Shown in pieces: positions 7,639 to 39,077 of a stretch of 64,000 nt of DNA; the first letter of the stretch is position 1; each line of letters starts with the position of its first letter. The notes beneath the pieces are model-generated. The model ran no database searches. It had not been told where the DNA came from and saw only the letters and a list, made by a program, of their open reading frames with translations. This DNA is from Candidatus Altimarinota bacterium. Lineage in GTDB: Bacteria; Patescibacteriota; Gracilibacteria; UBA1369. Where the stretch lies: positions 768,001-832,000 of the forward strand of contig OY782391.1 of NCBI GenBank assembly GCA_963677745.1, written 5' to 3'. The position numbers and the translations under genes are program-made.

Positions 7639-7759
7639 AACAAAAAAATCAAAATTATTAACGCGCCGACAGGTTACACCAAAATAAAAAATTTTCCAAC
7701 AAAGGGGTGGGTTGGCCGGCCGCGGAGCTCTCAAAGCGCCCGCAACCGGCCAAAACCTC

Positions 7760-8443
7760 TCACAGCTGGTCAGAATGATGGATGATGTCGTCCGGCCGGG
7801 TCGAGATCACCTTGAAGATGTCCCCCATTTCCTCTGACGAGGCCATCCTGGTGAATCTCACGTTCGCCAGGGCAAATATCTCCATGATATGCAGGACCCA
7901 GAGATTCCACTGCAGATCGTTGAGAGGCCCGTAATACGGCGACGTGATGTATCGTGTCTCCATGATCTTGGGACCGCCGGGAGTGGGGATGCTCGTCATG
8001 ATCCGGCCACAGTCACGCCTGTTCACCACGATCTGAACATCGGGGCAAACGGAGGGCTTGTGATGGCGACGGACCGGCAGCTTCAGCAGGTCTTCACCTA
8101 CCAGCATCAGGGCCTGAAGGTTGATCGAGGCCGAGTTGCAGATGTTGGTCTCTCCCACCTGATAGCCGCACCAGTCGAGCAGCTCTACAATGATTCGCAC
8201 CAGCTCATGCCTCAGAAACATGGGGATTCCCAGTTCCCAGGCATTATGGAGGAACCACGGTTGGCCACGAGTGGCCGACAAGAATCCCATCGGCTGAAAC
8301 CAGCATTCGGGATCTTCGCGAATCAACGCGACTCTTCCTTCTGCTTTCAGCACCAGATGTGTCGCATCTTTCAGCGACCTGCGCGTTCCCCGGTCATCCA
8401 GATAGGGATTCCACTGTCCCGGGAAAAATTCGACTTGATTCAT
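7760..8443 (-). CDS. Hypothetical protein (GC-rich orphan cassette)
   Basis: 227 aa. Has its own promoter (TTGACT-16-TAAAAT, minus strand near 8512-8539), a purine-rich leader AAGGCGGAATAGG before the ATG, and a GC hairpin after the stop. Confidence 0.6.
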   Translation of the reverse strand: MNQVEFFPGQWNPYLDDRGTRRSLKDATHLVLKAEGRVALIREDPECWFQPMGFLSATRGQPWFLHNAWELGIPMFLRHELVRIIVELLDWCGYQVGETNICNSASINLQALMLVGEDLLKLPVRRHHKPSVCPDVQIVVNRRDCGRIMTSIPTPGGPKIMETRYITSPYYGPLNDLQWNLWVLHIMEIFALANVRFTRMASSEEMGDIFKVISTRPDDIIHHSDQL

Positions 8444-8567
8444 CCTATTCCGCCTTGTGAAAGGTCAAACAGCCTGCATTCCCAACCAGTTGAGAAGCAG
8501 ACAACGCCGGCATTTTAGTTATTATTTGTCAAAAGTCAAATAACATTTAAAAAGTAATTTTGCGAGC

Positions 8568-8596
8568 TTGACTTGCCCAACCCTTTCGCCTATCAT
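8568..8596 (+). promoter_or_regulatory. sigma70 promoter of tRNA-Thr
   Basis: TTGACT-17-TATCAT. Confidence 0.65.
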
Positions 8597-8644
8597 CAAG
8601 CCCGCCAAAGCAGGCAGCAGAACTTAAACAATTGGCTTACTTAT

Positions 8645-8720
8645 GCCACTTTAGCTCAGTTGGTAGAGCAACTGTTTTGTAAACAGTAGGTCGTCGGTTC
8701 GAGTCCGACAAGTGGCTCCA
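8645..8720 (+). tRNA. tRNA-Thr(UGU)
   Basis: GCCACTTTAGCTCAGTTGGTAGAGC..., anticodon arm ACTGT-TTTGTAA-ACAGT, T-arm GGTTCGAGTCC, encoded CCA. Confidence 0.98.
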
Positions 8721-8855
8721 GTTTATAATCAACAGGCCGGCAATGCTTATCTGCACCGGCCTTTTGATAATCCCCCCGTTTTTGCTCCCAACTACTTCTC
8801 CCGCTACACAGAAAACTTCACATAAGCATAGTCCGGCAGCGCCCTTTTTCCCAGG

Positions 8856-8895
8856 TGCGACATCCGCAAACGTAAGATTTTCTTACTTTTTCGAA
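8856..8895 (+). repeat. 40-bp palindromic intergenic element, copy 1
   Basis: TGCGACATCCGCAAACGTAAGATTTTCTTACTTTTTCGAA; 34/40 identical to 31789..31828. Confidence 0.8.
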
Positions 8896-8972
8896 TCCCG
8901 TTAGTCCCGTTACTCCTTCCACCAGCTTACTGGAAGAGGCGATCCGGGCCATGTCGGATTGCGTAAATTCTA

Positions 8973-9001
8973 TTGCCAAAAAAAATACCGCCGCTTATAT
9001 T
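8973..9001 (+). promoter_or_regulatory. sigma70 promoter of tRNA-Tyr
   Basis: TTGCCA-17-TATATT. Confidence 0.6.
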
Positions 9002-9036
9002 TAACACGCCGAAAACTACGGTACATTGACAGTCCT

Positions 9037-9123
9037 GGGCGGGTACTCAAGCGGCCAACGAGGACAGACTGTAAATCTGTTGACTTCTAGTCTACGAAGG
9101 TTCGAATCCTTCCCCGCCCACCA
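9037..9123 (+). tRNA. tRNA-Tyr(GUA)
   Basis: GGGCGGGTACTCAAGCGGCCAA..., anticodon arm ACAGA-CTGTAAA-TCTGT, long variable arm, GGTTCGAATCC, CCA end. Confidence 0.98.
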
Positions 9124-9293: not shown

Positions 9294-9294
9294 G

Positions 9295-9828: not shown

Positions 9829-9843
9829 CCAAAAGTTTTAGCA

Positions 9844-16756: not shown

Positions 16757-18202
16757 ATGGCACCAGGTGACGGTAACCCATCAATGGATTCCCCGGTCAA
16801 GGCCGGTGATCAGGCCAGAGTGGAGGCTGTAGAAGCCGCCAAGAGATTTGAGGAACAACAGAAAAAGGCCGAAGAAGAATGGAAAAGACAGCATGTTGAG
16901 GCTGCTACTGAAAGACGTGAGGCTGGACGTGATGCTGTAAAAGATAGTGCCGCCAAAGCACGTGAAGGTATATTTACCCCTGCACCCGTAGCGTCAGCCG
17001 CTCCAACAACTGCACCTTCAACTTCTGAGACCGTCCCTGCTCCTTCGACGAGCCCGGAAGCCGCCCCTCAGGCTGCCCCGGCTCCTGCGGCGACCGCACC
17101 GGCAACTCCTGCGCCCGCTCCCGGTACAACGCCGGCCCCATCAGCAGCTCCCAGCGCTGCTCCTGCCGCCGCACCAACACCATCAGCTGCACCAACCGCC
17201 GCCCCCTCAGCAGCACCAAGTGCCGCACCTTCATCCGCTCCATCATCAAATCCCACCACGACTCCCACCAGCTCCCCTGCTGCGACACCGGGGGCGTCAA
17301 CCCCCACCTCCGGCACGGAAGCACCTCCGGTTCCCCCTCCTCCGGCGGCAGAAGAAGGCTTTGGGGGGAAAATCAAAGAATTTTTCAAAACTTTTCTTGC
17401 AGGAATGTTTGGCGGAAAGATGCCTGACTGGTTAAGTAAATTTTTTGGCGGGAAAGACACGGGCACAGCTACAGCATCAGCTTCCTCCACACCCTCCTCA
17501 ACGCCTGCAGCGTCACCTTCGGGCACATCAGAAAGTTCTCCTGAAAGCGGAAAAAGCTGGCGTGAAGTAGTCAACGCCGAAGCAGCCAGACTTGGTATCG
17601 AGCCGCCTTTTGCGCTGGCCATCGTCACCGTCGAGGCGGGCAAGGAAGGAATACAAAAAGACGGCAATCCCACCATCCGTTTTGAACCCGGATATTTCAA
17701 CAGATTACTGGCCAAAAAAGGCGTCAACGAACGTCATGCCACAGCCAACGGTTACAGTGACAGAAAAGTCGACGGAATCTCCTGTGAAGGAGGACAGGCC
17801 GCCGAGCAGGCCTGTCTGGCCAAAGCAATTTCCATCGATCCCGAGGCTGCCTATCAGTCGGTCAGTATGGGCCTGGGACAGATTATGGGTGAGTATTCAA
17901 AGTCAGCCGGCTATCCGACCGCCGAGGCCATGTATAAGGCCTTCAGTGCTTCCGGTGGTGGAGAAGCCGCCCAAGTGAAGGGCATGTTTAAAATTATCGA
18001 AGGCAGCCCCGCTCATCTCAGGGCCGCCCGCAACAAAGATTTCAGTGCTTTTGCCAACGTTTATAACGGCGCGAAAGTAGGTACTCCCAAACACAGCCAA
18101 TACATGGCGGCCCTGGAAAGAGCCTACCGCAATAATGGCGGAACCGGTGGATCCGGTACGGGTAGTCGCCCCTCCTCCGGCAGTCCCAGCGCAGTGGCGT
18201 AA
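16757..18202 (+). CDS. N-acetylmuramidase-domain (DUF3380-like) protein with long Pro/Ala/Thr linker
   Basis: C-terminal AIVTVEAG...PTIRFEPGYF...SMGLGQIMG...FANVYNG. No Sec signal peptide. Confidence 0.8.
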   Translation: MAPGDGNPSMDSPVKAGDQARVEAVEAAKRFEEQQKKAEEEWKRQHVEAATERREAGRDAVKDSAAKAREGIFTPAPVASAAPTTAPSTSETVPAPSTSPEAAPQAAPAPAATAPATPAPAPGTTPAPSAAPSAAPAAAPTPSAAPTAAPSAAPSAAPSSAPSSNPTTTPTSSPAATPGASTPTSGTEAPPVPPPPAAEEGFGGKIKEFFKTFLAGMFGGKMPDWLSKFFGGKDTGTATASASSTPSSTPAASPSGTSESSPESGKSWREVVNAEAARLGIEPPFALAIVTVEAGKEGIQKDGNPTIRFEPGYFNRLLAKKGVNERHATANGYSDRKVDGISCEGGQAAEQACLAKAISIDPEAAYQSVSMGLGQIMGEYSKSAGYPTAEAMYKAFSASGGGEAAQVKGMFKIIEGSPAHLRAARNKDFSAFANVYNGAKVGTPKHSQYMAALERAYRNNGGTGGSGTGSRPSSGSPSAVA

Positions 18203-18337: not shown

Positions 18338-20473
18338 CTAATCAATCAATATCGGTATGATCAGCGGCTGGCGGTCAATCTTGCTGACCACAAACTGATC
18401 CACGCTCTCGCGTATATGCAGTTTGGCCTCTTCATAATTGAATCCGGGATTGGATTTCACGAATTCGGTATAGGATTCGGCTGCTCGGCGGCAAATGCCG
18501 TTGATGATTTCACGTGATTCCTCCATATAGATAAAGCCGCGGGTTTCCACGCGAATTTCTCCGCGTACCGCCCGGGTGTTTTTATCAATGGGAAGAGTCA
18601 GTATGATTACGCCGTTCTCGGCCAGGATCTGCCTGTCCATCATAACCTGCGAACCGATGTCTCCACCGCCCATACCATCAACCAGAATATAATTGGTCTT
18701 AACTTTTTCACCGGTTACTTTGAGTTCGCCGTTGCACATTTCCAGCACGTCACCGTTTTCCACCATGATGGCCCGATTTTCCGGATGGCCCAGTTCATGC
18801 GTCATCAATTCGGCATGGGCTTTTCTCATGAAAAACTCGCCGTGTATCGGCACGAAGTATTTGGGTTTGACCAGACTGAACATCAGTTTCAGGTCTTCCT
18901 GGTGTCCATGCCCGGAAGCATGCACATCCATAATATTGTTATTGATCACCTTGGCTCCCAGTCTGACCAGGTTGTTGGTCACCCGCACCACGGCCATTTC
19001 ATTGCCGGGAATCGGTGTAGAGCTAAGTACAACGGTATCACCTTTTCCGACTTTCACCTGGGCATGTTCGTCCAGAGCCATACGGCTCAAGGCGGCCACG
19101 GGTTCACCCTGCGATCCGGTAGTCAGAATAATCGAATTGTCACCGGGATGTTTCTTGGACTTTTTAATGTCCATGATCAGTCCCTGGGGATATTTGAGAT
19201 ATCCCAGTTCAGCCGCCATCACGCAGTTATCAATCAGGCTCCTGCCGCTCAGGAAGATTTTCCTGTTATGGAGGATAGCTGCGTCGATAATCTGCTGTAT
19301 GCGGCCGATTTGCGATGAAAAAGAAGCGATGATTACTCTTCCTTTGGCCTCCTTGATTATAGTTTCCAAGGTCTGGCCGATTTTCTTTTCGGACATTGTA
19401 TAGCCGGGTCTGGTGGCATTGGTGGAATCACTGAACAGAGCGGTAATATTACGCTCGCCCAGCGCGGCTATTTTGGAAAATTCCGGAGGCATTTGTGCCC
19501 CCGCGGGACTCAGGTCGATCTTAAAGTCGCCAGTATGTACCACCGAACCTGCCGGAGTCTCAATCAAGAGGCCGGAGGCATCGGGTATGGAATGGGTAAC
19601 GCGGAAGAATGAAACTTTCATTTTTCCGAAATAAAGCACGTCGGATTTAAAATCGACCACTTTTAGATTGGCGCTTTGCATCAATCCGTGTTCCTCCAGT
19701 TGTTTGGAAATCAGTCCCATCGTCAATTTGCCGGTATAAATGGGCGGATTGCCCAGTTTATTGAGCAGATAAGGGATTCCTCCAATATGATCCAGATGTC
19801 CGTGAGTTACTACTATTCCTTTGATTTTATTAATCTTATCTTTCAGATAATTAATATCGGGAATCACATAGTCCACCCCCAGCATGTCTGCTTCGGGGAA
19901 TTGAAAACCCAGATCCACCAGGAATATTGCGTCTTCGTATTCGAAGATCATGGTGTTCTTGCCGACTTCATCCAGACCGCCTATCGGTATGATGCGGAGT
20001 TTCCCCCGGGGATCATACGTTTGTTGGGCAGGCTGCGCTTCGCTTGCCCGCCTAAGAGCACTCTGAAACTTGTGCCGCTGGTTGAAATTACCCTGAAAGG
20101 CATTTTTGAAGCCGCCCTTGCGTTTTTTTCCTGCGCCTGGCTGATTTCCACCACCACCGGGACCTTTTTGAGGAGGTCTCTGAGGCGGTTTTTGCCCGCC
20201 CGGCTGATTATTGTGGGTCTGATTGTTCTGGCCGCCGAAATTCCGCTGCATCGCCGGATTGTTCTGCCGTTGGTGGGGGTTGTTCTGCTGCCTTGGTTGG
20301 TTTTGATTGCCTTTTCTTTGTTCAGGGCGGCTATCCTTAAAAAACCCTGTCTTTTGTTCGGGAGTTGACTGTGTCGCTGGTGCTTCTGTCTTTCCTATGT
20401 TTAAAGTTTGCTTTAACCACTGGTCGAGAATATCTAGCTTCTTGCCTTTCTCCTCTTTTCTGAGATCGTCCAT
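18338..20473 (-). CDS. rnj: Ribonuclease J with long N-terminal low-complexity extension
   Basis: IGGLDEVGKN, THGHLDHIGG, HSIPD, HTGDFK, TGSQGEP, HASGHG and PIHGE motifs. Confidence 0.97.
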   Translation of the reverse strand: MDDLRKEEKGKKLDILDQWLKQTLNIGKTEAPATQSTPEQKTGFFKDSRPEQRKGNQNQPRQQNNPHQRQNNPAMQRNFGGQNNQTHNNQPGGQKPPQRPPQKGPGGGGNQPGAGKKRKGGFKNAFQGNFNQRHKFQSALRRASEAQPAQQTYDPRGKLRIIPIGGLDEVGKNTMIFEYEDAIFLVDLGFQFPEADMLGVDYVIPDINYLKDKINKIKGIVVTHGHLDHIGGIPYLLNKLGNPPIYTGKLTMGLISKQLEEHGLMQSANLKVVDFKSDVLYFGKMKVSFFRVTHSIPDASGLLIETPAGSVVHTGDFKIDLSPAGAQMPPEFSKIAALGERNITALFSDSTNATRPGYTMSEKKIGQTLETIIKEAKGRVIIASFSSQIGRIQQIIDAAILHNRKIFLSGRSLIDNCVMAAELGYLKYPQGLIMDIKKSKKHPGDNSIILTTGSQGEPVAALSRMALDEHAQVKVGKGDTVVLSSTPIPGNEMAVVRVTNNLVRLGAKVINNNIMDVHASGHGHQEDLKLMFSLVKPKYFVPIHGEFFMRKAHAELMTHELGHPENRAIMVENGDVLEMCNGELKVTGEKVKTNYILVDGMGGGDIGSQVMMDRQILAENGVIILTLPIDKNTRAVRGEIRVETRGFIYMEESREIINGICRRAAESYTEFVKSNPGFNYEEAKLHIRESVDQFVVSKIDRQPLIIPILID

Positions 20474-20658
20474 ATCGTAATTTAGTTCTATTTATTATTT
20501 ATTATGTATTTTGAAGGAACTTTACTTCAACTAATTTCATTATACCACGAAACTAGTAAAACATTCTTACATAATATTTACAAAAACACAAGGAGTGTTG
20601 TCCAAAAGCCCCTTCTCGAACGGAGTTTCCGGCTTGGTGGAGGGGATTTGGAGCTAAC

Positions 20659-20686
20659 TGGACAAAAGTAAAAAAGTTGTTATAAT
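20659..20686 (+). promoter_or_regulatory. sigma70 promoter of the small-ORF cassette
   Basis: TGGACA-16-TATAAT with extended -10 TG. Confidence 0.7.
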
Positions 20687-20764
20687 GCAAACGTGTCCAA
20701 AGCTGACTAAGACAATGTCGGTCGGCTGTACGACTGATAAGAAAGGAAAAAAGGCAATAAACAG

Positions 20765-20959
20765 ATGGGGAAAATCTTCTCAAGGGCCGTCATGGGCGTC
20801 GAAGTAGGCGATCACTCCATCGTCATCAACAAAAGGTGGTATCATTTCTGGCGGCTTGCCGCCCTGAGCTACCTTCCGGCGATGGCATTCAACCTCCTGT
20901 TCGGACATCGAACTGTCTACCAGGAGAATTCGGAGGAGATCGAGATATACTTCCTCTAG
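20765..20959 (+). CDS. Small 64-aa hypothetical protein (GC-rich cassette)
   Basis: Strong promoter, AAAGGA/AAGG leader, C/G-ending codons, downstream GC hairpin. Confidence 0.55.
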   Translation: MGKIFSRAVMGVEVGDHSIVINKRWYHFWRLAALSYLPAMAFNLLFGHRTVYQENSEEIEIYFL

Positions 20960-21030
20960 CCGCATCCTTTCACCGATTGCTCCGCGCTCGCAGTCCAAGC
21001 TGACTCGCGCGGGGCACTTCGTCCTGCCCG

Positions 21031-21834
21031 TTATTCGCTTTGCACCCCTTTCAGAAAACCCTCTCTATATAAATAACTGAGCACCCGTCCGTCTTCGCTG
21101 TACTTTTCCAGAGCTTCCCCGACGCTGATTTCCCCGGCTTTAAGCATCCGGATAATTTCATCGGCCTGCCGTTTGGAGTGTTTGTGCATTTTGTCTTCGC
21201 GCACGATCAAAGACATTCCGATGGTGAATATCACTGCCATCATCATCCAGAACACCGATCTTTCGATTTCCACGCCCAGTGTTTCAAAGGACAGTTTGAC
21301 GCCCACAAAAAACACCAGTTGATAAGCCAGATCCTCCAGTTTCGGAAATCTCTCAATGGCTTTTACAAAGTATCCAGAAAGATATCTCATCAAAATAATT
21401 CCCATTATTCCGCCAAACCACAACACCCACAACTTATCGCTGAAAGCCACGGCGGTGGTAATGCTGTCGATCGAGAATACAATGTCTGTCAGTTCCACGG
21501 CCAGCACCACGCCCCAGAAAGCTTTGGCGGTGGAGTAGGTTTTAACCTCTTTTTCTACCCCGATCCCAAAAAACATGTGCTTGATGGCCAGATAAATCAG
21601 ATATGCGCCGCCCAGCAGCTTGAACACCGTGAATTTAATCAGGTAAGTCGCAAAAATCAGGGCGATAAAACGGAAAATAAAAGCTCCCCAGATACCATAA
21701 CGCAGGGCTTTTTTTCTGGTGTTTTCCGGCAGCGGACGCACCAGAATCGCCAACACCAGGGCATTGTCCACCGACAGAATTCCTTCCAACAGGGCCAGTG
21801 TGACTACCGTCAATATGTCGTGAACATCAAACAT
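21031..21834 (-). CDS. TerC-family membrane protein
   Basis: LEGILSVDNALV and ELTDIVFSIDSI motifs. Confidence 0.92.
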   Translation of the reverse strand: MFDVHDILTVVTLALLEGILSVDNALVLAILVRPLPENTRKKALRYGIWGAFIFRFIALIFATYLIKFTVFKLLGGAYLIYLAIKHMFFGIGVEKEVKTYSTAKAFWGVVLAVELTDIVFSIDSITTAVAFSDKLWVLWFGGIMGIILMRYLSGYFVKAIERFPKLEDLAYQLVFFVGVKLSFETLGVEIERSVFWMMMAVIFTIGMSLIVREDKMHKHSKRQADEIIRMLKAGEISVGEALEKYSEDGRVLSYLYREGFLKGVQSE

Positions 21835-23354
21835 CAGTCTAATTCGGGATAAAGTCTAAATTTTTCCAGGAGGATTTTAACCTGATTTTTAATGGAAGTC
21901 TTCAGATTATTATCCAGATGGTATTTGGAAAGGGTCGGTTTACCGTCGGGACCCGGTAAGGCCTTGGTAGCAGACAGGACAGCCTGTATCATTCCGGCAA
22001 TTTCTTTCATTTCTTTTGTTCCCATGCCCAGAGTGGTCAGAGCCGGTGTTCCCAGTCGCAGTCCGCTGGTATACCAGACACCTTTCGGGTCAAAGGGAAT
22101 GGCATTGCGGTTCATTGTCAAACCGCATTCGCGCAGGGCGTCTTCGGCCTGGCGGCCGGTCAGTCCGAAACTCTCAAAGACATTGATTTGGAGAAGATGA
22201 TTGTCCGTGCCACCCGTTAATACTTTCATGCCCAGTGTCATACACTCGGCGGCCAAGGCTTGGGAATTTTCAACTATCTGCTGTGCGTACCGGCGGAATT
22301 CCGGCTGGAGAGCCAGTTTGAAGGCCACGGCCTTGGCCGCCATCATCTGCGGCAGCGGGCCGCCCAGCATGGTCGGGCACCCTTTATCCACATATTCGGA
22401 CAGCCACTTTTTGCAGAGTACTATACCGCCGCGCGGCCCGCGCAATGTCTTGTGGGTAGTCGAGGTCACAATATCCGCATAGGGAATCGGATCAAATTCG
22501 CCCTGAAAAACTTTCCCGGCCACCAGCCCGGCAAAATGTGCCATGTCCACCATCAGTACGGCGCCTACCATATCGGCGATTTTCCTCATTCTGGCAAAAT
22601 CGATCTTGCGCGGATAGGCGGAAAAACCGGCCAGCAGAATCAGTGGTTTTACTTCCAGCGCCATTTTTTCGATCACATCATAATCCAGCACTCCGGTTTC
22701 CTTTGATACCGAGTATTGGTGAATTTCAAACAGCCAGGAGGAAATATTCATGCGGTAGCCATGGGTCAGATGTCCGCCCGAACCGATATCCAGAGCCATC
22801 ATTTTCTGATGCAGCGTCTTTTCCCGCAGAGTATCCCAATCCTTGGCCACCAGCCCGCGTATATCCTTGGGGGCCATTTCCGCACCTTTGCCCTGTTTGG
22901 TCAGCATGGCACTCACCTCGTCCAAAAAACCTCGATGCACTTTGGCGGCCAAAATTGCCGTAAAGGCGACCATGTTGGCATCCGCACCGGAATGGGGCTG
23001 TACATAGGCATGCTCTGCCCCGAATAATTCAGTGGCCAGCTTAACCGCTTCTCTTTCAATAGTATCAACATTCTCGCAGCCGGCATAGAAACGTGCACCG
23101 GAAATACCTTCGGCATATTTATCTGTCATCAAATTACCCATGGCCTGTTGTACGGCCAGATTGGAATAATTTTCCGAGGCAATCAGTTTCAGATTGGATC
23201 TTTGATCCGCCAGTTCTTTCAAAATCGCCTCGGCAATCAGCGGATTGACGGCTGTCACAGTGTCCAGGGAAGAATAAAAAGACACCGCTTCACTTCTGGC
23301 GTCGGCGGGTGAACGGTCTTTCAAATAATTTTTCAGATACGATGTAGTTTGCAT
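21834..23354 (-). CDS. glyA: Serine hydroxymethyltransferase (long form)
   Basis: LIASEN, KYAEG, QPHSGADAN, GGHLTHG, DMAHFAGL and TTHKTLRGPRGG motifs. Its stop overlaps the terC start (TGATG). Confidence 0.97.
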   Translation of the reverse strand: MQTTSYLKNYLKDRSPADARSEAVSFYSSLDTVTAVNPLIAEAILKELADQRSNLKLIASENYSNLAVQQAMGNLMTDKYAEGISGARFYAGCENVDTIEREAVKLATELFGAEHAYVQPHSGADANMVAFTAILAAKVHRGFLDEVSAMLTKQGKGAEMAPKDIRGLVAKDWDTLREKTLHQKMMALDIGSGGHLTHGYRMNISSWLFEIHQYSVSKETGVLDYDVIEKMALEVKPLILLAGFSAYPRKIDFARMRKIADMVGAVLMVDMAHFAGLVAGKVFQGEFDPIPYADIVTSTTHKTLRGPRGGIVLCKKWLSEYVDKGCPTMLGGPLPQMMAAKAVAFKLALQPEFRRYAQQIVENSQALAAECMTLGMKVLTGGTDNHLLQINVFESFGLTGRQAEDALRECGLTMNRNAIPFDPKGVWYTSGLRLGTPALTTLGMGTKEMKEIAGMIQAVLSATKALPGPDGKPTLSKYHLDNNLKTSIKNQVKILLEKFRLYPELD

Positions 23355-23765
23355 GTTCAAAATTGGTTAATAGATACCAGGTCTGATCGCTCCATGAGGG
23401 GTAAAGCAATGGGGGCAGCCATTGCCGACCGGCCAAAAAAGCCACTTTGTTGTGCAACTAAATCATACTTTATAACCTAAGAAATAAGCTGCCGCCAGAT
23501 TAACACAGGAGTGTTGTCGTGCCAAGAAAAATAGACTTGTGTAGGAGTTTGTGTTGGGAGTATATTCCCGCCTTGCCTTAAAAGGCTGATATTTGATTTT
23601 TAGAACAATTTTTAACCGTAATCAGGAGAGGGCTCTCTGCCGTTAACCAGAGATAACTCCCCGGAAGAACTACGAAGTGGCAAGTTTGGGCACTTGTAGT
23701 CAACCGGAGTGCTGCGTGAACCGGCGAGAGTTCACTCTCTGTCGGTTAAGGATTGGTACAAGTCA

Positions 23766-25019
23766 ATGAAGCAGATCAATGTGATCAACTCTCTGACTGT
23801 CGCTGGACTGCTGGCCGCGATCTTCGGCGACGAAAACACGTCGCCGGTTCAGATCAAACTCCAGCGCAACAAGGTTGCGGAGAAGACAGGCCGGTGGGCA
23901 TGGAGCGTCTCGCTGCCTCTGAAAAACGGGGAAGTCGAGAACCTCTTCGAGTCGCTGATTCTGCGTTCGCTGCAGGTCACCAACGACGAGCTGCCCGCCA
24001 CTCTCACCATCACGGCGTGCGCTACGAATGTTGGGTACGAGCCCTGCTTCCAGCTCATCAACTGCACCTTCCTCAAGCGCGGCGTGCGCCGGCTGCGAAG
24101 AGCGTTCACGGAGACCATGGAACGCTGGGAAGCTGCGCGCGGTTGCGTCGCCTGTGCCTGGGAGGTGGGGGGACTTCAGATTCAGACGGAGCTCAAAGCC
24201 ATCCAGCTCAGCCAGTGTGATTCTCCCGGTCTCGTTCACAGCCTTCAGGTCAGGATGCGACCCGTCAACTCTCAGAAGGGGCTCCTGGCCATCATCAAGG
24301 CACAGAGCGAGGACGCCCTGGTGTTCTTCGATTTTGATCGCTCCCTGGCCGAGTCAGGGTTCCGTTCAGCCGTTCAGCAAAAACTGGAGGACTACCTGCG
24401 CAACCTGATCAAGAAGGGCATGGCCGAATGTCTCGACCAGATCCAGGAAGAAGTGGTCGGGTACCACCCCACAATTCTGCTGAAGACACTTTTGGAACTC
24501 GGCGAGCAGCGGGAACGGGTGGAAGAAGCTGGAATCCCCATTACGTTCAATCACCTCCTTCCCGAGTTGATTTCGCGTCTGCAGGAATACCTCGACTACA
24601 AGAAGCAGGCGGAGAAGCCGGGGATTCCCATCACCTTCAACGTCTACAGGTCCGGCGCGCTGGTCGGGAAGCACACCCTCTCCAACAAGGTCATCAAGAT
24701 CGGCCGGACTCCCGGAGATAACGTCGTCCCGCTCCAAGTCAAGGACACTTTCATTCCCGGCATCCACTCCGTGATCGAACAGAGCTGCGGGAGGATCTGC
24801 CTGATCGATCTGGCTACCGAGCTGCCGACATTCGTTAACGGCGAGCCGGTGCCGGGCAAGCGCAACCTGCACAGCGGCGACCAGATCGGGGTGGGAGACC
24901 TCTTCACCATCAAGGTGGAGTTCCAGGAAACCGCCACCGATGACGTCCCGGCCCAGGAGGCCTTCGCTGCACCTGACCCCGAGACTGCTTCGTCGCAGTT
25001 CGACAACCAGCCCGCCTAG
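23766..25019 (+). CDS. Protein with C-terminal degenerate FHA domain (GC-rich cassette)
   Basis: IKIGR...IPGIHSVI...LIDL...TFVNG...LHSGDQIGVG. Codon usage is visibly GC-rich relative to neighbours. Confidence 0.75.
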   Translation: MKQINVINSLTVAGLLAAIFGDENTSPVQIKLQRNKVAEKTGRWAWSVSLPLKNGEVENLFESLILRSLQVTNDELPATLTITACATNVGYEPCFQLINCTFLKRGVRRLRRAFTETMERWEAARGCVACAWEVGGLQIQTELKAIQLSQCDSPGLVHSLQVRMRPVNSQKGLLAIIKAQSEDALVFFDFDRSLAESGFRSAVQQKLEDYLRNLIKKGMAECLDQIQEEVVGYHPTILLKTLLELGEQRERVEEAGIPITFNHLLPELISRLQEYLDYKKQAEKPGIPITFNVYRSGALVGKHTLSNKVIKIGRTPGDNVVPLQVKDTFIPGIHSVIEQSCGRICLIDLATELPTFVNGEPVPGKRNLHSGDQIGVGDLFTIKVEFQETATDDVPAQEAFAAPDPETASSQFDNQPA

Positions 25020-25111
25020 TCACCCGCAGTCGGCCCGGCCTTTGTACCAATCCTTTTGCTCTTCGTGAGCGTCTGGTCTGCCAACCAGAAAATCTTCGAC
25101 AGGGGGAAAAT

Positions 25112-25141
25112 AATCACCGGCCGGGCAGGGTCGGTGATTTT
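25112..25141 (+). terminator. Intrinsic terminator of the FHA cassette
   Basis: AATCACCGGCC-loop-GGTCGGTGATTTT. Confidence 0.6.
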
Positions 25142-25180
25142 CAATATCCGTTGATTCTAAAATATTTCCCAGCCGGAAGC

Positions 25181-26917
25181 TTAAGGATTTCCACTATCGT
25201 TAATTTCCGCACTGCTGGCTTCAACAACATTTTCATTGGCGGCGCCGGCCTTGGCCACCGTTTCCAGATTGGCTTTCGCCCCGTCACCGGTTACCGGCAT
25301 TTTTTTCTTGATCACCAGCATCATCATTTCCTTGGTCAGAGCTCCTGTCAGAATCAGCACGGCAAAATAAACTATTCCGCCCAGCGGAATCAGTAAGATG
25401 AAATTTTTATTCTGCATTCCCCACAGATAATAAGTCGGCTCTTTGGCATAATAAACCACTGCGGCCATCAACCCCGTGGCCAGCAGCATTTTGAAAAATC
25501 GTCCCAGTTTGATTTGGAATTGTACATAGCGGCGCGCCAAAATATAGGTGGCCACAAAAATATAAAATTCGGTAATGATGTTGGCAAACGCCGCGCCGCG
25601 TACTCCCCACTGGGGTATCCACCACCAGGAAAGCAATACGGTTAAAGCCGCTCCGATGATATTGCGTATCAGTAATTTATCCTGATGTTCGGAAGCAACC
25701 AGTACATAGCCGAAAAGCCCGTTTAGGAAACTGAACAGCAGGGCGATGATCAATATCTGCAGGACAATGTCCGAACCGACATAGCCGGCGCTCCAGTTGG
25801 TCAAAAATTCCGGGGTGGAAATCAGATAGATAAACTGATAGGCCAGAATAAAAGTTCCTGTCACTATTGGCAGGGCGCTCATCATCAGAAAATCAAAACA
25901 GGTTTGGATAATCGGTTTATGAGATCCGTCCTTGGCATGTAGGGCGCGGGTCAGAAAGGGCAGAATGGCATTCATGAAATAAAGCGGTACTATCCCCGCC
26001 GCTTCCAGCATGGTGGAAGGAGCGGAATAAGTAGCCACATAGGTGGCGCCAAAACCCGGCATGTTCAAAAGCATCACCGAACCGATCCGGAAATAAATCT
26101 GATTCAGGATCAGGGCTATCCCATAAGGCAGGGCTTTCCAAAGCACTTCTTTCCAGAACCACAGATCAAAACGGTAACGGATTTTTACCAGTTTTCTGGC
26201 AAAATAGGCCGTCACAATATACATGGCAATGTTGCCGACCAGACCGGCCAGTACCAACTGGATAAAAGCCCCGTCCGATACGGCGCAGGCACTGCCGTCG
26301 TTGACCAGAAATTGTACTGTCTGCGGAGCACAATCATGGGGAAAAAAGAAATATATTACCACTGCCATATAGGCCAGCGAGACCAGTTTCCCCACCACCG
26401 AACCCAGCGAATTTTTTTCCATTTGCAGATGCACCTGCAGGGCGGTCGAGACTGTTCCGGTCAGTATTGCAAAGACCGAACCAACCGCCGCCAGGGCCAC
26501 GGCATAGGGTGCGATTGACCCCTTATATTCATCAATCAAAAACGCCACGGCAAAGGCAACTACGGAAATCAGCACAATTACGATTGTCCTGGCCATCATC
26601 ATATTTCCCAGCACCATCTCCTCACGCTTGGGATCCTTGCTCATTTCCCGGACGCCGATCGTGTACAGTCCCATATCCGCCACGATGGCGAACAGGGCCA
26701 GATATTCGTAGATCGACTTGTAAATTCCATATCCCTGTTTACCCAGATAGGTCGTCAGCATTTTCAGAATAAAAACCGAAAAAAGACCGATTATTATTTT
26801 GGCCGCCACCTGGGAAGCGGTATTCATCAGTATTTTCCGGGCAACATGCGGCTGCCCCGCTTTGGGGGCAAAACCTGACCCCGAATGACCGGTTGAGGAG
26901 GATGCTGTCAGTGCCAT
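25181..26917 (-). CDS. Oligosaccharide flippase (Wzx/MOP superfamily)
   Basis: ARKILMNT...YLGKQGYGIY...ADMGL; about 14 TM segments; WGVRGAAFA. Confidence 0.85.
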   Translation of the reverse strand: MALTASSSTGHSGSGFAPKAGQPHVARKILMNTASQVAAKIIIGLFSVFILKMLTTYLGKQGYGIYKSIYEYLALFAIVADMGLYTIGVREMSKDPKREEMVLGNMMMARTIVIVLISVVAFAVAFLIDEYKGSIAPYAVALAAVGSVFAILTGTVSTALQVHLQMEKNSLGSVVGKLVSLAYMAVVIYFFFPHDCAPQTVQFLVNDGSACAVSDGAFIQLVLAGLVGNIAMYIVTAYFARKLVKIRYRFDLWFWKEVLWKALPYGIALILNQIYFRIGSVMLLNMPGFGATYVATYSAPSTMLEAAGIVPLYFMNAILPFLTRALHAKDGSHKPIIQTCFDFLMMSALPIVTGTFILAYQFIYLISTPEFLTNWSAGYVGSDIVLQILIIALLFSFLNGLFGYVLVASEHQDKLLIRNIIGAALTVLLSWWWIPQWGVRGAAFANIITEFYIFVATYILARRYVQFQIKLGRFFKMLLATGLMAAVVYYAKEPTYYLWGMQNKNFILLIPLGGIVYFAVLILTGALTKEMMMLVIKKKMPVTGDGAKANLETVAKAGAANENVVEASSAEINDSGNP

Positions 26918-27053
26918 TAATGCGATTCGTAAATAAAGCGCGGCAATTCTATCACCAAATTATTTTCGTGGCGAACATTCGTTTACAGTTTTCCACATCT
27001 ATAATATGATTCCCTGCGTACGAAAACCGCCGCAATCATTAATAGCCAACAGT

Positions 27054-29417
27054 ATGTCTGCCATCAAAAAGAAATTTTATTGTCTGGACATGTTCCCCTA
27101 TCCCTCCGGCTCCGGCCTGCACGTGGGGCACGTGGAAGGATATACCGCCTCCGACATTGTCAGCCGGCTGATGCGGATGAAGGGCTTTGATGTAATACAC
27201 CCCATGGGTTGGGACGCTTTTGGACTGCCCGCCGAAAACTATGCCATCAAGACCGGTGTTCATCCCAGCCAGACCACCGACACCGCCATTGCCAATTTTA
27301 AACAGCAGATGAACCGTGTCGGGCTTTCTTATGATTGGGAGCGTGAAATACAGACCAGCAAACCTGAATATTATAAATGGACACAATGGTTTTTCCTGCT
27401 TTTTTATAAAAACGGACTGGCCTACAAAAAGAAGGCCAAAGTCAACTGGTGCGACCATTGCATGACTGTGCTGGCCAATGAACAGGCCGAAGGAGGCGTC
27501 TGTGAACGATGCGGCAATCAGGTTGTCCAGAAAGACCTGGAACAGTGGTTTTTCCGCATTACCGATTTTATCGAGGATCAGAAATATGAAGGCCGCACCA
27601 TCAAAGGTCTTTTAAGCGGACTGTCGGATCTGGACTGGCCGGACTCCACCAAATCGGCACAGATCAACTGGATCGGCCGCAGTGAGGGGTCAATGGTCAC
27701 CTTCCCGGTCAAAGACAAAAAATCCATACTTTCAGAATTGGAAGTATTCACCACCCGTCCCGATACTTTATTCGGATGCACCTATATGGCCATCAATCCC
27801 GAGCATCCGATTTTGCAAAAATATGCCGGACAGATTGAAAATATTGCCGAAATCAAGGCTTACGCCAAAGAAGCACAATCCAAAACCGAGCTGGAAAGAA
27901 CCGATTTGAACAAGGAAAAAACCGGCGTGGAAATCCAGGGACTCACCGCCATTAATCCGGTCAACGGCAATGAAATAAAAATCTTTGTGGCCGATTATGT
28001 GCTTTCCACCTATGGAACCGGCGCAGTGATGGCCGTGCCGGCACACGATGAACGCGACTATGATTTTTGCAAAAAATACAAACTTGAGATGATCGAAGTG
28101 GTTAGCGGCGGAAATATCCAGAAAGAGGCCTACACGGAAAACGGCGTCATGGTTAATTCTCATTTTCTAAACGGACTGCAGTCTGACGAAGCCAAAACCG
28201 AAATGATCAAATGGCTGGAAAAAGGCGGTCATGGCAAAATGCATATCAACTACCGCCTGCGCGACTGGCTGATTTCACGTCAGCGTTACTGGGGCGCCCC
28301 CATCCCGATTATTTATTGTGATAAATGCGGCACCGTGCCGGTTCCCGAACTAGAGCTGCCGGTTTTGCTGCCGACAGATGTTGACTTCAAACCCACCGGC
28401 GAATCCCCGCTGGTCCATTCCAAAACCTTTCATGACGTCAAATGTCCGACTTGTGGCGCCGCCGCCCGCCGCGAAAGTGACACTATGGACACCTTTGCCT
28501 GCTCCTCCTGGTACTTCTTCCGCTTCCTCGATCCGCACAATGACCGTGAATTCGCTTCCCGCGCGGCCATCGAAGCCGGCCTGCCCGTGGATATCTACAT
28601 CGGCGGCGCCGAGCATTCCGTACTCCATCTCCTCTACGCCCGCTTCTTCACCAAAGTTCTCCAAAAATACGGTTACATCGATTTCAACGAACCTTTCCTC
28701 AAGCTCCGCCATCCCGGCACCATCCTGGCCGAAGACAATACCAAGATGAGCAAGTCCAAAGGCAACGTCATCAATCCCGACGACGTGGTTAAACAGTTCG
28801 GCGCGGACAGTCTCCGTCTCTACGAAATGTTCATGGGCGTTTTCAATGAGTCCAAGCCCTGGAACACCAAGAGCATCGTCGGGGTACGCCGCTTTCTGGA
28901 CAAGATTTTGGCCCTGGCCGACCGGGTCAGTGACAAAGTTGAACTGGATGCCCGCCATCAAAAGCTCACCTTCGAACTTCACCGATCCATCAAAAAAGTC
29001 GGTGATGATATCCGTGATTTCAAGTTTAATACGGCCGTTTCCCAGTTGATGATTTTGGTCAATGAATTTGCCAACCACAACGCCATCCCCCGCGACTATT
29101 TCGAGAAATTTCTTCTGATTCTGTCCCCTCTTGCCTCCTTTACTGCCCAGGAATTGTGGCAAAAACTCGGATATGGCGATTCCATCCATGAACAGTCCTG
29201 GCCCGAATATGACCAGTCCCTGCTGCTTCAGGAGGATGTCACGCTCTCGGTGCAGGTGAACGGTAAATTGCGCGGGGTGATTCAGATACCGCGTGATGCC
29301 GCCGAAGCGGAGGTTCTGAAAATTGCCCAGGAAGATCCGGCCATCGGCAAATACCTCGCTGACGGTTATAAAAAGCATATCTACATACCCAACAGAATCC
29401 TCAATTTTGTTGTTTAA
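27054..29417 (+). CDS. leuS: Leucine--tRNA ligase
   Basis: MFPYPSG-GLHVGH, GWDAFGLPAEN, FTTRPDT, RLRDWLISRQRYWG, KMSKS and QVNGKLR motifs. Confidence 0.98.
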   Translation: MSAIKKKFYCLDMFPYPSGSGLHVGHVEGYTASDIVSRLMRMKGFDVIHPMGWDAFGLPAENYAIKTGVHPSQTTDTAIANFKQQMNRVGLSYDWEREIQTSKPEYYKWTQWFFLLFYKNGLAYKKKAKVNWCDHCMTVLANEQAEGGVCERCGNQVVQKDLEQWFFRITDFIEDQKYEGRTIKGLLSGLSDLDWPDSTKSAQINWIGRSEGSMVTFPVKDKKSILSELEVFTTRPDTLFGCTYMAINPEHPILQKYAGQIENIAEIKAYAKEAQSKTELERTDLNKEKTGVEIQGLTAINPVNGNEIKIFVADYVLSTYGTGAVMAVPAHDERDYDFCKKYKLEMIEVVSGGNIQKEAYTENGVMVNSHFLNGLQSDEAKTEMIKWLEKGGHGKMHINYRLRDWLISRQRYWGAPIPIIYCDKCGTVPVPELELPVLLPTDVDFKPTGESPLVHSKTFHDVKCPTCGAAARRESDTMDTFACSSWYFFRFLDPHNDREFASRAAIEAGLPVDIYIGGAEHSVLHLLYARFFTKVLQKYGYIDFNEPFLKLRHPGTILAEDNTKMSKSKGNVINPDDVVKQFGADSLRLYEMFMGVFNESKPWNTKSIVGVRRFLDKILALADRVSDKVELDARHQKLTFELHRSIKKVGDDIRDFKFNTAVSQLMILVNEFANHNAIPRDYFEKFLLILSPLASFTAQELWQKLGYGDSIHEQSWPEYDQSLLLQEDVTLSVQVNGKLRGVIQIPRDAAEAEVLKIAQEDPAIGKYLADGYKKHIYIPNRILNFVV

Positions 29418-37152: not shown

Positions 37153-37158
37153 TCCCAG

Positions 37159-37674
37159 TCAGATATTTAAATGTCTTTCTCTTTTTTCCATCTGTTCCAG
37201 CACGTTGTTTTCGCGTTTTTCGATCTTGTCCACAAACAGCACTCCGTCCAGATGATCAATTTCATGTTGCACCACCCGGGCATTTAGTTCCGAGAGTTTG
37301 AGCATCTGTGATTTCCCTTTTTTATCCAGGAATTTAACGATAATATCGCGGTAACGCCGTACCGGTTCAAATACTTTTGGAATGCTCAGGCAGCCTTCCG
37401 TATCCACCTCGGTTTCCTCGGAATGAAAAACAATTTCCGGATCTATCATCGGCAGATTCACCTCTTGGTCTGTCTGCTGATTCAGTTTCACGATAATTAT
37501 TCTCCTGGACTCCCCTACTTGTGGAGCAGCCAGTCCGCAGCCGTTTCCCTCCTCCATGGTCTGTTCCATATCCTGAACCAGTTTCAGGATTACCCGGTCG
37601 ATTTTTTTAACCGGCTTGGCCGTTTTTCTCAGTACCCGATTGTCTGTACCCGTTTCGATTTTAAGTCTGGACAT
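37159..37674 (-). CDS. def: Peptide deformylase
   Basis: GCGLAAPQ, EGCLS and QHEIDHLDG motifs. Confidence 0.97.
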   Translation of the reverse strand: MSRLKIETGTDNRVLRKTAKPVKKIDRVILKLVQDMEQTMEEGNGCGLAAPQVGESRRIIIVKLNQQTDQEVNLPMIDPEIVFHSEETEVDTEGCLSIPKVFEPVRRYRDIIVKFLDKKGKSQMLKLSELNARVVQHEIDHLDGVLFVDKIEKRENNVLEQMEKRERHLNI

Positions 37675-37879
37675 GTCCTCTGATAAATGTCTTTGGATAA
37701 TTGATTCTAGACGGATGGTACTTGAAAATCAACAAAAGTCGAGTATGATTGCACCTTCTTTGTCACTTTTCGGACAGGCCGTCAGGGTCTGCGAAAGCGT
37801 AACAGGGAGATCAAAGTCTTTCGCCTAACGGATCCTTGACATCCTGAATTTCTGATAAACCACGACCTGGAGGGAAATC

Positions 37880-39022
37880 ATGAAGGCTTCTCACCTCAAA
37901 TGGCTGGCACTGTATCTGGTCCTGCTGTTGGCGGGTGTGATTGTTTTCATTACCCTCGACGGCTGGCCTCGCCAATACCTGATGATGATCCTGGTGGGAG
38001 GGGCTCTGGTAGAGACCCTTCACCTGATCACACCGCCCTGTCTGCTCAAGTACGTCGGAACCTGGCCGTTTGGTGCACCCAACTGGCAGTCCATCGAGAG
38101 GGTCCCGATAACGCTTTTGGCCTTTCTACTTGTCTACGGGGCTGGCGGTGATCCGTTCATACTCTGGACCGGTTTGCTGATCGGCATCGTCGGCATCTAC
38201 ATGGACCGGCTGGACGGCAAAACGGTCAAGAGCCTACTTGCCCGTCTGCGCATTCTCAAGGAGATCCAGATCATCAAGCCGGATGGCAGGAGAATCACCG
38301 CTTCACCGGAAGTGGCCGAACCTCCCCTTACCAAATCCGGAGAACTCTGGGCCTGGTTCGAGATGGAACAGAAGGTCAAAAAGGTGGTCAGGAAAACTCA
38401 GGTCAGGGTGCTGGTAGAAGACTGGCTCTACTACCTGAAAAGTCCCGGCACCAGATTACCCATGTTCCAGCTGGACAGGAGCGAAGATCCCCGCTACCCG
38501 GGCTTGCGTCTTTCCCTGACCGGCTTGGGAGAGGTGATCGATCCCCTGGCGGACAAGGGCTGTTTCATACCCGCCTTCATCCATCTGGCTCAGGCCGGCT
38601 TGGTGAATCCCTGGGTGGCCGCTCTGATGATTCTCTCCGACCTGATCAGCACGGTTTTCCGTCGGCCCTTCGACCGGCTGCCGGTTTTCCGCCACCTGCA
38701 AAGGCTGGTCAAAAATGACCAGACTTCCGGCTATGGCAAGCCGAAGAAGGAAGAAAAAGCCTCCGCTTTCGGTAAAACGAAGGTGGTCTGGCAATTCATC
38801 GTTCTTCTGGCGACCCTGCCGGCCTCCGCCGGCTGGTTGAATCCGGTGGAGATGTACTGGAGCAGATCGATCGCTTCCTGGACCCTCGGATTGGGAGTAC
38901 TGGCCGGCGTGTTCAGCACTCTGTCCCGGCTCAAGATCTGGCAGGTGATTCTGAGGCGGTTCGGGCTGCGGCGCTGGAATCAGAATTTCAAGGAGGTCTT
39001 CGACCACGATGTGGAGGACTGA
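37880..39022 (+). CDS. CDP-alcohol phosphatidyltransferase-like membrane protein with large insertion (GC-rich cassette)
   Basis: PNWQSIER, DRLDG...GEVIDPLADK and GKTK motifs. SD GGAGG; promoter TTGAAA..TATGAT at 37722-37749. Confidence 0.7.
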   Translation: MKASHLKWLALYLVLLLAGVIVFITLDGWPRQYLMMILVGGALVETLHLITPPCLLKYVGTWPFGAPNWQSIERVPITLLAFLLVYGAGGDPFILWTGLLIGIVGIYMDRLDGKTVKSLLARLRILKEIQIIKPDGRRITASPEVAEPPLTKSGELWAWFEMEQKVKKVVRKTQVRVLVEDWLYYLKSPGTRLPMFQLDRSEDPRYPGLRLSLTGLGEVIDPLADKGCFIPAFIHLAQAGLVNPWVAALMILSDLISTVFRRPFDRLPVFRHLQRLVKNDQTSGYGKPKKEEKASAFGKTKVVWQFIVLLATLPASAGWLNPVEMYWSRSIASWTLGLGVLAGVFSTLSRLKIWQVILRRFGLRRWNQNFKEVFDHDVED

Positions 39023-39023
39023 A

Positions 39024-39055
39024 AACAGGCGGGTGCGCATGCGCGCCCGCCTGTT
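39024..39055. terminator. Strong hairpin between convergent genes
   Basis: AACAGGCGGGTGCGC-AT-GCGCGCCCGCCTGTT. Confidence 0.7.
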
Positions 39056-39077
39056 CAGCGAATTAAATTTTAATCAT

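Follow-up and report, generated by a model that had tools for sequence, protein, structure and literature searches.

In this study we focus on four genes in a 64,000-nucleotide stretch of DNA from a Candidatus Altimarinota bacterium (contig OY782391.1, positions 768,001 to 832,000), hereafter the window: an orphan gene at 7760..8443 on the minus strand (orphan-1), a candidate gene for 64 amino acids at 20765..20959 on the plus strand, a gene with an FHA domain at 23766..25019 (+), and a gene for a CDP-alcohol-phosphatidyltransferase-like (CDP-like) membrane protein at 37880..39022 (+). The evidence leans towards these genes being members of a small native class, vertically inherited and maintained by selection, whose structured mRNAs depend on pairing between a Shine-Dalgarno (SD) sequence and the anti-SD of the 16S rRNA. 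The original prediction had described them as cassettes rich in guanine and cytosine (GC) with SD-like sites among native genes without them, and had proposed either repeated capture of single genes from a GC-rich donor or structured mRNAs tuned for a different translation context such as host ribosomes.

The genome to which the window belongs (labelled G000) consists of one contig of 1,335,835 bp with a GC content of 47.4%, and the organism is a Peribacteria-like member of the candidate phyla radiation (CPR). A simple custom caller using hexamer log-odds yielded 1105 genes at 91% coding density. The GC content of third codon positions is given as GC3, and SD sites were scored by their pairing energy to the 16S tail in kcal/mol, a site at or below -7 being counted as an SD unless stated otherwise. 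Relatives were searched in 24 other genomes of the same family and in 16 genomes from the order's other families; the relatives compared, which are non-independent of one another, include G002, a congener of G000, as well as G020, which belongs to another genus and was sampled over 400 kb, and G003, sampled over 391 kb.

Initiation without SD pairing is the default in this lineage. The 3' end of the 16S rRNA reads ...GGATTACCTCCTTTCT (the tail is also printed as ...ACCTCCTTTCT), so the anti-SD, whose state the original prediction had proposed to check, is canonical and intact in G000. Despite this, the region from -15 to -1 upstream of 1104 starts contains only 8-13% G and 40-45% A, and no peak of SD k-mers was found upstream of these starts. 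Sites at or below -7 kcal/mol occur in the SD window of 35 of the 1104 genes, compared with 57 in a mock window; the same depletion is seen in G020 (11 against 21 matches) and in G003 (3 against 13). In the stretch of ribosomal-protein and elongation-factor genes at 465.6-487.9 kb, none of the 35 genes has an SD at or below -7 kcal/mol, the strongest site scoring -4.9. The view that native genes have AT-rich leaders without an SD is therefore borne out genome-wide, and SD sites are shown to be counter-selected although the anti-SD is kept. A comparable depletion is described for Flavobacteriales in the available part of PMC9976891. Our literature search, which did not extend to the supplements of PMC9976891, PMC7797042 and PMC9297842, found no paper on SD use in Peribacteria and none describing a class of this kind.

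Across the genes of G000, GC3 (0.533 +/- 0.073) forms a unimodal core with a high and a low tail. Approximately 2% of the genes (24) have a GC3 of at least 0.70 compared with a mean of 0.53, and we place the size of the class at about 20-30 genes. The high tail includes the three larger genes of the window, namely 7760-8443 (-) with 0.706 (98th percentile), 23709/23766-25019 (+) with 0.778 (99th) and 37880-39022 (+) with 0.740 (99th). Indeed, the preference for C- and G-ending codons that had been noticed in the four window orphans holds, with GC3 of 0.71-0.78 against 0.533 +/- 0.073 for the genome. Their SD-like sites are likewise graded as had been described, the one at 37880 being strong (-9.8 kcal/mol) and those of orphan-1, the FHA gene and the 64-aa open reading frame (ORF) weak (-6.7, -8.1 and -6.0, respectively).

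High GC3 and SD use are tightly associated. An SD at or below -7 kcal/mol precedes the called start of 13 of the 24 GC3-rich genes and of 22 of 1080 others (Fisher p = 5.5e-15); when any start within the first 30 codons is allowed for all genes, the counts become 18/24 and 148/1081. Mock internal starts at codons 60-90 have such sites at the same rate in the class (3/18) and in other genes (162/861), and a control window at -70 to -54 contains an SD in none of the 24 genes. The link to SD is therefore not a plain effect of GC-richness. With the cut-off set at the mean plus two standard deviations, SDs are found in 14/29 GC3-rich genes and 22/1076 others in G000, in 5/8 and 10/291 on contig C2 of G002, in 5/8 and 6/302 in G020, and in 1/9 and 2/335 in G003, where the association is weak (p = 0.08). 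Clustering the genome by GC3 against SD use, which the original prediction had put forward as a check, thus reveals a link in G000, G002 and G020, in the form of a unimodal core with a high tail.

The mRNAs of the class are also unusually structured. Folding was analysed for the 18 genes that are both SD-bearing and GC3-rich. The median minimum free energy (MFE) of the start region from -30 to +30 is -9.2 kcal/mol in the class and -5.0 in the comparison genes (p = 3e-6). When coding regions were compared with synonymous-codon permutations that preserve both the protein sequence and the codon usage, the mean z was -2.13 for 17 class genes, 16 of them negative, and -0.25 for 30 core genes (p = 2e-4). 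This excess points to selection on mRNA structure. The idea of structured mRNAs meant for a different translation context thus keeps its first half, given the start MFE, the permutation z and a default that is SD-independent with an extended SD on rpsU, while the context would be the organism's own initiation through SD/anti-SD pairing.

Ribosomal-protein genes have average GC3 and favour NNC over NNT and NNA over NNG. The class favours NNC even more strongly and adds a preference for NNG, with AAG at 0.65 against 0.28 and GAG at 0.53 against 0.28; this is therefore a general GC shift and not an expression-linked pattern. Ordinary expression-linked codon bias was accordingly rejected as the origin of the class, since the ribosomal-protein and elongation-factor genes combine average GC3 with NNA over NNG and have no SD at or below -7 kcal/mol.

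The genomic setting of the class genes speaks for native inheritance. Gene order in the window matches that of contig C2 of G002 read in the opposite orientation, and the three larger genes occupy the same slots there between conserved neighbours. The CDP-like protein is 51% identical between the two genomes, within neighbours of 79% and 70%; orphan-1, at 32%, stands next to a gene of 65%; and the FHA protein, at 61% with a GC3 of 0.77 in G002, lies between genes of 91% and 89%. Ten G000 genes with GC3 of at least 0.70 find a reciprocal best hit on C2; all ten of these orthologues are GC3-rich too (0.68-0.83) and colinear. The orphans had been thought to be inserted singly, a description that is wrong for the three larger genes; only the 64-aa ORF lies in an indel. 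Given the colinearity with G002, there is no room for a mobile element next to the three larger genes; no mobility genes were seen, in an analysis in which the neighbours were not annotated for integrases and the borders were not searched for repeats.

The CDP-like gene can be followed furthest among relatives. It is matched in 9 of the 24 other family genomes, in six of them near full length, and in none of the 16 genomes from the order's other families, with one match per genus apart from two congeners. In four genera (G000, G001, G015 and G024) it lies beside the same 171-aa neighbour, and its pairwise identities follow those of the neighbour gene (Spearman 0.67, 10 non-independent pairs). 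Full-length homologues were found only in Peribacteria/Patescibacteria records and in one metagenome-assembled genome labelled Gammaproteobacteria, at 28% identity. In a protein atlas the CDP-like protein gave only leads, with scores up to 0.84, pointing to CPR, and the 800-aa protein considered below had no usable match. The original prediction had proposed that native genes would have homologues restricted to CPR and transferred ones homologues in other phyla. By that criterion the class is native: the CDP-like family is CPR-restricted, and the FHA and orphan-1 families, both very small, are confined to the lineage. Repeated capture from a GC-rich donor fails on the synteny, on the ten GC3-rich orthologues out of ten and on the lineage-restricted families, no donor-lineage homologues having been found for the class genes examined. 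The class is thus probably vertically inherited, and a reading by recent capture is not supported.

Moreover, the composition of the CDP-like gene and its SD persist together across genera. The SD is kept in G000, G001, G002, G015 and G024, that is in 5 of 6 orthologues whose starts were examined (the site in G004 is ambiguous), and also in G003; it is retained while the surrounding untranslated region (UTR) diverges. GC3 is 0.63-0.77 against flanks of approximately 0.39-0.55 across genomes, with the highest value, 0.77, in G002 and a lower one in G003. In the latter, where genome GC3 is 0.168 +/- 0.040, the gene has a GC3 of 0.406, the highest of the 344 genes sampled, and carries one of only three strong SDs. 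Expressed as a logit, the excess amounts to about 0.8-1.4 in every genome, a steadiness that a constant push toward GC against a varying mutational bias would give.

A second class family, encoding a secreted protein of 800 aa, behaves similarly: its GC3 is 0.50-0.72 against flanks of 0.17-0.40 in G003, G004, G015, G018, G024 and G032, and start sites resembling SDs are present in G002, G004, G024 and G032. Together, the two families exceed their genomes in GC3 by +0.2 to +0.4 in genera that range from 29% to 51% in genome GC and from 0.17 to 0.60 in genome GC3, and most orthologues retain an SD. In G003, four contigs (C2, C4, C5 and C6; loci L131 and L138) begin or end in homologues of the 800-aa protein, which suggests that this genome has two near-identical copies that broke the assembly.

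These results bear on the possibility that the class derives from old horizontal transfers out of GC-rich, SD-using donors, with amelioration still incomplete. Lawrence and Ochman reportedly characterised acquired genes and genomic islands as compositional outliers that ameliorate with time, and the class shares this classic signature: GC3 far from the genome mean, many orphans, and singletons with their own promoter-like sites and hairpins. The DNA upstream of class genes is also GC-richer (0.476 vs 0.328), several members occur within the genus only, orphan-1 adjoins a tRNA-Thr gene, and one class member contains 25 Cys-rich repeats of the MopE type, a repeat common in GC-rich Myxococcota. 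Furthermore, the genome does contain evident low-GC foreign islands. On the other hand, class genes are lineage-restricted and lie in syntenic slots of the congener, donor-lineage homologues are lacking for the genes examined, and neutral decay cannot yield the GC3 excess that two families hold across genera of varied GC. The SD, too, is kept in a diverging UTR.

The time available for amelioration was estimated from G000 and G002. Synonymous divergence (dS, NG86) has a median of 1.64 in core genes, with no defined value for 7 of 59; where the residue is conserved, four-fold sites are not fully saturated, being 48.5% identical where 27.5% would be expected at saturation, which fits old transfer. 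By a rough two-state estimate, between half and three quarters of a neutral GC3 excess would have disappeared since the split, so that most transferred members would need an impossible ancestral GC3. Old transfer thus appears unlikely for the class as a whole, whereas the genus-restricted members may derive from old transfers that have ameliorated in part.

A further explanation would be GC-biased gene conversion at recombination hot spots, acting on fast-evolving surface or interaction genes, with the link to SD secondary. Lassalle et al. (2015) are said to have found that such conversion raises GC3 in recombining bacterial genes, and the class resembles these in its gene-specific, lasting excess. 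Its proteins evolve fast: the median identity between G000 and G002 is 42%, compared with 69.6% for other genes, and omega is 0.11-0.51 with a median of 0.37, compared with 0.14 in a sample of 59 core genes. At these values of omega the class is under purifying selection. Hydrophobic signals are present at the N-terminus of half of the members, all three codon positions and the flanking non-coding DNA have raised GC, the four contig-edge pieces of the 800-aa family in G003 are consistent with repeated copies, and Gly- and Cys-rich repeat proteins could convert among themselves. Yet the CDP-like, FHA and orphan-1 genes each have a single match in G000, and other fast-evolving, low-identity genes of the window have ordinary GC3, which also led us to reject fast evolution alone as a cause of high GC3. 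Conversion predicts neither correctly spaced SD sites conserved across genera nor folding beyond composition, and we regard it as quite improbable.

Two other readings can largely be set aside. A chimeric assembly, contamination or wrong gene calls might be suspected because the assembly is of the metagenome type, the gene calls are custom and GC-rich DNA gives long shadow ORFs. Such an artefact is already contradicted by cross-genome synteny, the same genes occupying the same slots in independently assembled relatives; in addition, Pfam domains fall in the called frames, where omega is below 1, and the stretch 20400-29400 is present whole in five sequencing runs from two studies, none of the runs listed being of RNA. 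We therefore hold an artefact to be extremely improbable. The other reading, adaptation of the genes to ribosomes of a host cell that is itself GC-rich and uses SDs, has in its favour that SDs together with GC-ending codons are the usage of a typical GC-rich bacterium. However, GC3 of the same gene tracks the composition of each symbiont genome, from 0.41 in G003 to 0.77 in G002, and takes no fixed host-like value, and N-termini resembling signal peptides or lipoboxes, as well as membrane helices, suit export by the organism itself. Bacteria are not known to us to pass mRNA or DNA to another bacterium in order to have it expressed there. No evidence for tuning to host ribosomes was found, and it is scarcely credible.

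Regarding the proteins of the class, many are orphans or belong to the envelope or the secreted fraction; several have hydrophobic or lipobox-like N-terminal signals and some have membrane helices. By a crude hydrophobicity rule, such signals occur in 12 of the 24 members and in 346 of 1081 other proteins (p = 0.08), so that enrichment for the envelope is weak; the predicted signals fit ordinary export from the organism's own cells. Not every class gene is a singleton: outside the window, two or three of them adjoin one another, with GC3 up to 0.82, at G000:C1:1307222-1311527, 913698-915652 and 624752-625996, and encode small orphans and putative lipoproteins rich in Gly or Cys.

How such a class might be read by the ribosome is suggested by rpsU. 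This gene of 68 aa (G000:C1:157606-157812), Pfam-confirmed as ribosomal protein S21 (bS21) and the one rpsU match in G000, has the strongest SD of all genes in the genome (AAAGGGGGTAA, -17.4 kcal/mol). An extended SD of the type GAAAGG(A/G)GGTGA is found at 25 of 28 rpsU genes detected in relatives with the Pfam profile, two of them recognised by eye in front of a nearby ATG, and at 2 of 3 additional genes from a protein query, giving 27/31 in total. Genes for bS21 were detected in 22 of the 24 family genomes by the Pfam profile, and in G020, G026 and G038 by the protein query (loci L072-L099 and L160-L162); no match was found in G014 and G029 by either. G020, which is Pfam-negative, was considered as a natural experiment lacking rpsU and rejected when the protein query recovered bS21 with an extended SD. 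A survey reports that Peregrinibacteria frequently lack bS21 (PMC9297842); that many bS21 matches fall under the Pfam cut-off may explain the difference.

A parallel exists in Bacteroidia, whose SD-blind system, in which ribosomes do not use SDs unless bS21 is absent, is described by Jha et al. 2020 (PMC7797042), McNutt et al. 2023 (PMC9976891) and two follow-ups of 2026 (PMC13000453 and PMC13000457). According to the available parts of these papers, the anti-SD is held by bS21, bS18 and bS6, with site residues Phe50, Asn56, Gln58 and Lys/Arg37 of bS18 and Trp100 and Arg103 in the C-terminal helix of bS6 (PMC7797042); rpsU has an extended SD of about -14 to -21 kcal/mol and is translated better by ribosomes without bS21 (PMC7797042, PMC9976891 and PMC13000453). 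The lineage studied here belongs to a different phylum, the CPR, and shares with Bacteroidia the retained anti-SD, A-rich and G-poor leaders, SD frequencies below mock, and a lineage-conserved extended SD of rpsU. In Francisella tularensis, as far as the accessible text of PMC9578407 and PMC13374519 goes, heterogeneity in bS21 controls the translation of specific mRNAs. That system resembles the one proposed here in using the bS21 content of ribosomes to select translated mRNAs, and differs in having three bS21 paralogues where G000 has one rpsU match and a conjectural link to the class.

On this basis we propose that selection of roughly constant strength, corresponding to the logit GC3 shift of about 0.8-1.4, would keep class mRNAs GC-rich and folded. 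Folded mRNAs may be poor substrates for default initiation, which would make them dependent on SD/anti-SD pairing. More speculatively, and by analogy with Bacteroidia, bS21 could help to hide the anti-SD, and the class could form a regulon for ribosomes with a free anti-SD, for example those without bS21. In its fullest form, Peribacterales would have two regimes, with bulk genes SD-independent, read by ribosomes whose anti-SD is unavailable, and a GC-rich structured regulon of envelope, secreted and orphan proteins initiated only through SDs and switched on at low bS21 occupancy. The rpsU autoregulation of Bacteroidia would here have widened into an independently evolved genome-wide switch of the CPR; we offer this tentatively and consider it rather doubtful.

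Several observations weigh against the proposed class or narrow it. All gene and start counts depend on the custom caller, and the GC3 cut-off of 0.70 was picked after data inspection, the cut-off at the mean plus two standard deviations giving the same result. Six of the 24 GC3-rich genes are without any SD, including housekeeping-looking ones that resemble, by sequence only, NrdR and an rRNA methyltransferase; the SD-like sites are no more than weak in three of the four window genes; and in G003 the class is nearly down to one gene in the 391 kb sampled. GC1 and GC2 are likewise somewhat raised in the class, which suits a regional process as well as selection on folding, and the permutation z is possibly inflated by uneven GC3 inside genes. 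Conservation across genera is shown for two families only, the 760490 and 529057 families, the FHA gene and orphan-1 being genus-restricted, and by the four-fold-site measure saturation between the congeners is incomplete.

The bS21 parallel has its own difficulties. The C-terminal 26 residues of G000 bS21 contain 10 Lys or Arg and 2 Asp or Glu, making this tail strongly basic, whereas the Bacteroidetes protein has a less basic C-terminal part and a signature Tyr54, according to the available part of PMC7797042; the protein comparison covers bS21 only. Sequestration of the anti-SD is therefore hypothetical here and, should it occur, could rest on another mechanism. For Flavobacteriales, moreover, SD control is reported to be limited to rpsU, typically the one strong-SD gene (PMC9976891, in the part available), while some 20-35 further SD genes form a compositional class here; a regulon would depart from that pattern. 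With these points counted, we still find membership of the four window genes in a native, SD-dependent class the reading that is somewhat better founded than not.

Turning to the individual genes, the CDP-like protein has 380 aa. Its SD, GGAGGG at 37869..37874 (+), is separated from the ATG at 37880 by 5 nt. A promoter-like site, TTGAAA-16-TATGAT, lies upstream at 37722..37749 (+), in a block conserved in G002; outside this block the 5' UTR diverges there and contains an insertion of 64 nt. At the 3' end, a GC-rich perfect hairpin read from the sequence (39025..39054) lies between the convergent genes 37880-39022 (+) and 39078-40364 (-); the terminator scan missed it because no T-run follows. 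Of the strong hairpins said to follow each orphan, this one is clean and the others are modest.

The motif of CDP-alcohol phosphatidyltransferases is normally contiguous (DGxxAR...GxxxDxxxD). In the CDP-like protein its halves are about 100 residues apart: DRLDGK and GxxxDxxxDK are invariant in six orthologues, and the extended forms DRLDGKxAK and GExLDPLxDK are invariant or nearly so. The Pfam family PF01066 scores 29.3 bits against a cut-off of 22 and covers only profile positions 56-135 of 152. In the structural model (pLDDT, a predicted local distance difference score, of 73.5), the insert of some 100 aa is beta-rich, with strands within residues 125-213. A Foldseek search with this model returned PgsA (7drk; probability 1.00, E = 0.1, TM score 0.45 on the target), PIPS (6wmv) and AF2299 (4o6n), none reaching E <= 0.001, and no match in the PDB was found by sequence.

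The FHA gene encodes 417 aa with a GC3 of about 0.78; its N-terminal 320 residues belong to no known family and the FHA domain is C-terminal. Phosphothreonine binding by FHA domains involves the Arg of a GR motif, the Ser and His of SxxH and the Asn of an S-T-N turn. The Pfam profile PF00498 scores 32.3 bits against a cut-off of 20.7 over residues 330-396 of the 436-aa reading. When aligned to 6hc1, GR and the His are kept, while SxxH has Pro at its Ser position and TEL stands where STN is expected, the Asn thus being Leu; these changes are identical in all three family members. Two of the orphans had been called degenerate versions of known folds, and this agrees with the altered FHA residues and the split CDP motif. 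Only two homologues of the FHA protein were found among 5.8 billion proteins, at 63% and 60% identity, and a protein-pattern scan of metagenome contigs gave no further relatives.

Upstream of the FHA gene lies a conserved, structured non-coding leader of 405 nt at 23361..23765 (+), which also includes the divergent promoter region of 21834-23360 (-). It is identical to G002 at 293 of 348 nt, even though synonymous sites are close to saturation, and none of the other syntenic intergenic regions, 44 in all, is as well conserved. The frame from the GTG at 23709 is broken by an indel between the two genomes, and conservation ends at the ATG at 23766, which the sequence comparison marks as the true start. 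The fold of 23575-23790 has a z of -3.99, none of 200 shuffles being as stable, and pairs the SD-like AAGGA, a site with a long spacer. The leader matches no Rfam family (a mir-156 match at E = 0.11 is due to chance), and a search with a 19-nt leader pattern found three loci matching the pattern alone, as expected by chance, and no further copies of the leader. We regard 23361-23765 as a candidate cis-regulatory RNA or small RNA. The 3' region at 25020..25180, common to the FHA gene and the convergent 25181-26917 (-), is identical to G002 in 106 of 161 nt and contains a weak terminator-like hairpin at 25120-25135.

Orphan-1 encodes a predicted cytoplasmic alpha/beta protein of 227 aa (model pLDDT 75) and has the weak SD-like site AAGGCGGA. 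No Pfam family and, in the fold search, no match at E <= 0.001 were found. Syntenic orthologues exist in G002 (32-34% identity, GC3 0.70) and G001 (29%); a search of 1.84 billion clusters gave 8 representatives of the family, and for none of them is a position outside the lineage shown. The adjoining tRNA-Thr is adjacent in G002 as well. A promoter-like site matched by consensus only, TTGACT-16-TAAAAT at 8512..8539 (-), precedes the gene, and its -10 block and first transcribed bases are conserved in G002.

The 64-aa candidate has GC1, GC2 and GC3 of 0.51, 0.32 and 0.74 and is the sole uncalled ORF of the genome with the composition pattern of the class. It is preceded by a promoter-like site with 11 of 12 consensus matches, TGGACA-16-TATAAT with a TG element (20659..20686, +; consensus only). 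Each orphan had been assigned a promoter of its own, and promoter-like hexamers are indeed present upstream of these three; the scan found none 5' of the FHA gene. One homologue of equal length and 83% identity to the 64-aa product was found. The ORF is absent from the syntenic slot in G002, where 20615-21834, holding this ORF and a 267-aa gene at 21031-21834 (-), forms an indel between the congeners. The gene remains unproven, because the caller favoured the opposite-strand ORF 20780-20998, with a low score. Next to the indel, the 141 nt at 20474-20614, 5' of a 711-aa gene at 18338-20473 (-), are 93.6% identical to G002 and may be a conserved leader or promoter element; the remainder of the intergenic region is unrelated.

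Elsewhere in the window, a gene for 481 aa at 16757-18202 offers an internal contrast to the GC3-rich class: it is GC-rich by codon positions 1 and 2 (GC2 0.63), its GC3 is an ordinary 0.48, it is without an SD, and it has no orthologue on contig C2 of G002. Outside the window, gene clusters of very low GC3 (0.23-0.40) lie at G000:C1:240000-250000 and 301000-310000; with their opposite composition, they have the appearance of true foreign islands.

Genes that deviate in composition and bring their own ribosome-binding sites are routinely dismissed as foreign. Here such genes appear to be inherited, maintained across genera that differ widely in base composition, and tied to a distinct mode of initiation, which would caution the detection of horizontal gene transfer in CPR genomes. 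The finding would also extend the biology of SD-blind ribosomes and bS21 from Bacteroidia to an unrelated, uncultured lineage. Should the regulon idea prove true, it would offer a testable case of specialised ribosomes controlling a defined set of genes, and a reason why some genes resist the mutational bias of their genome.

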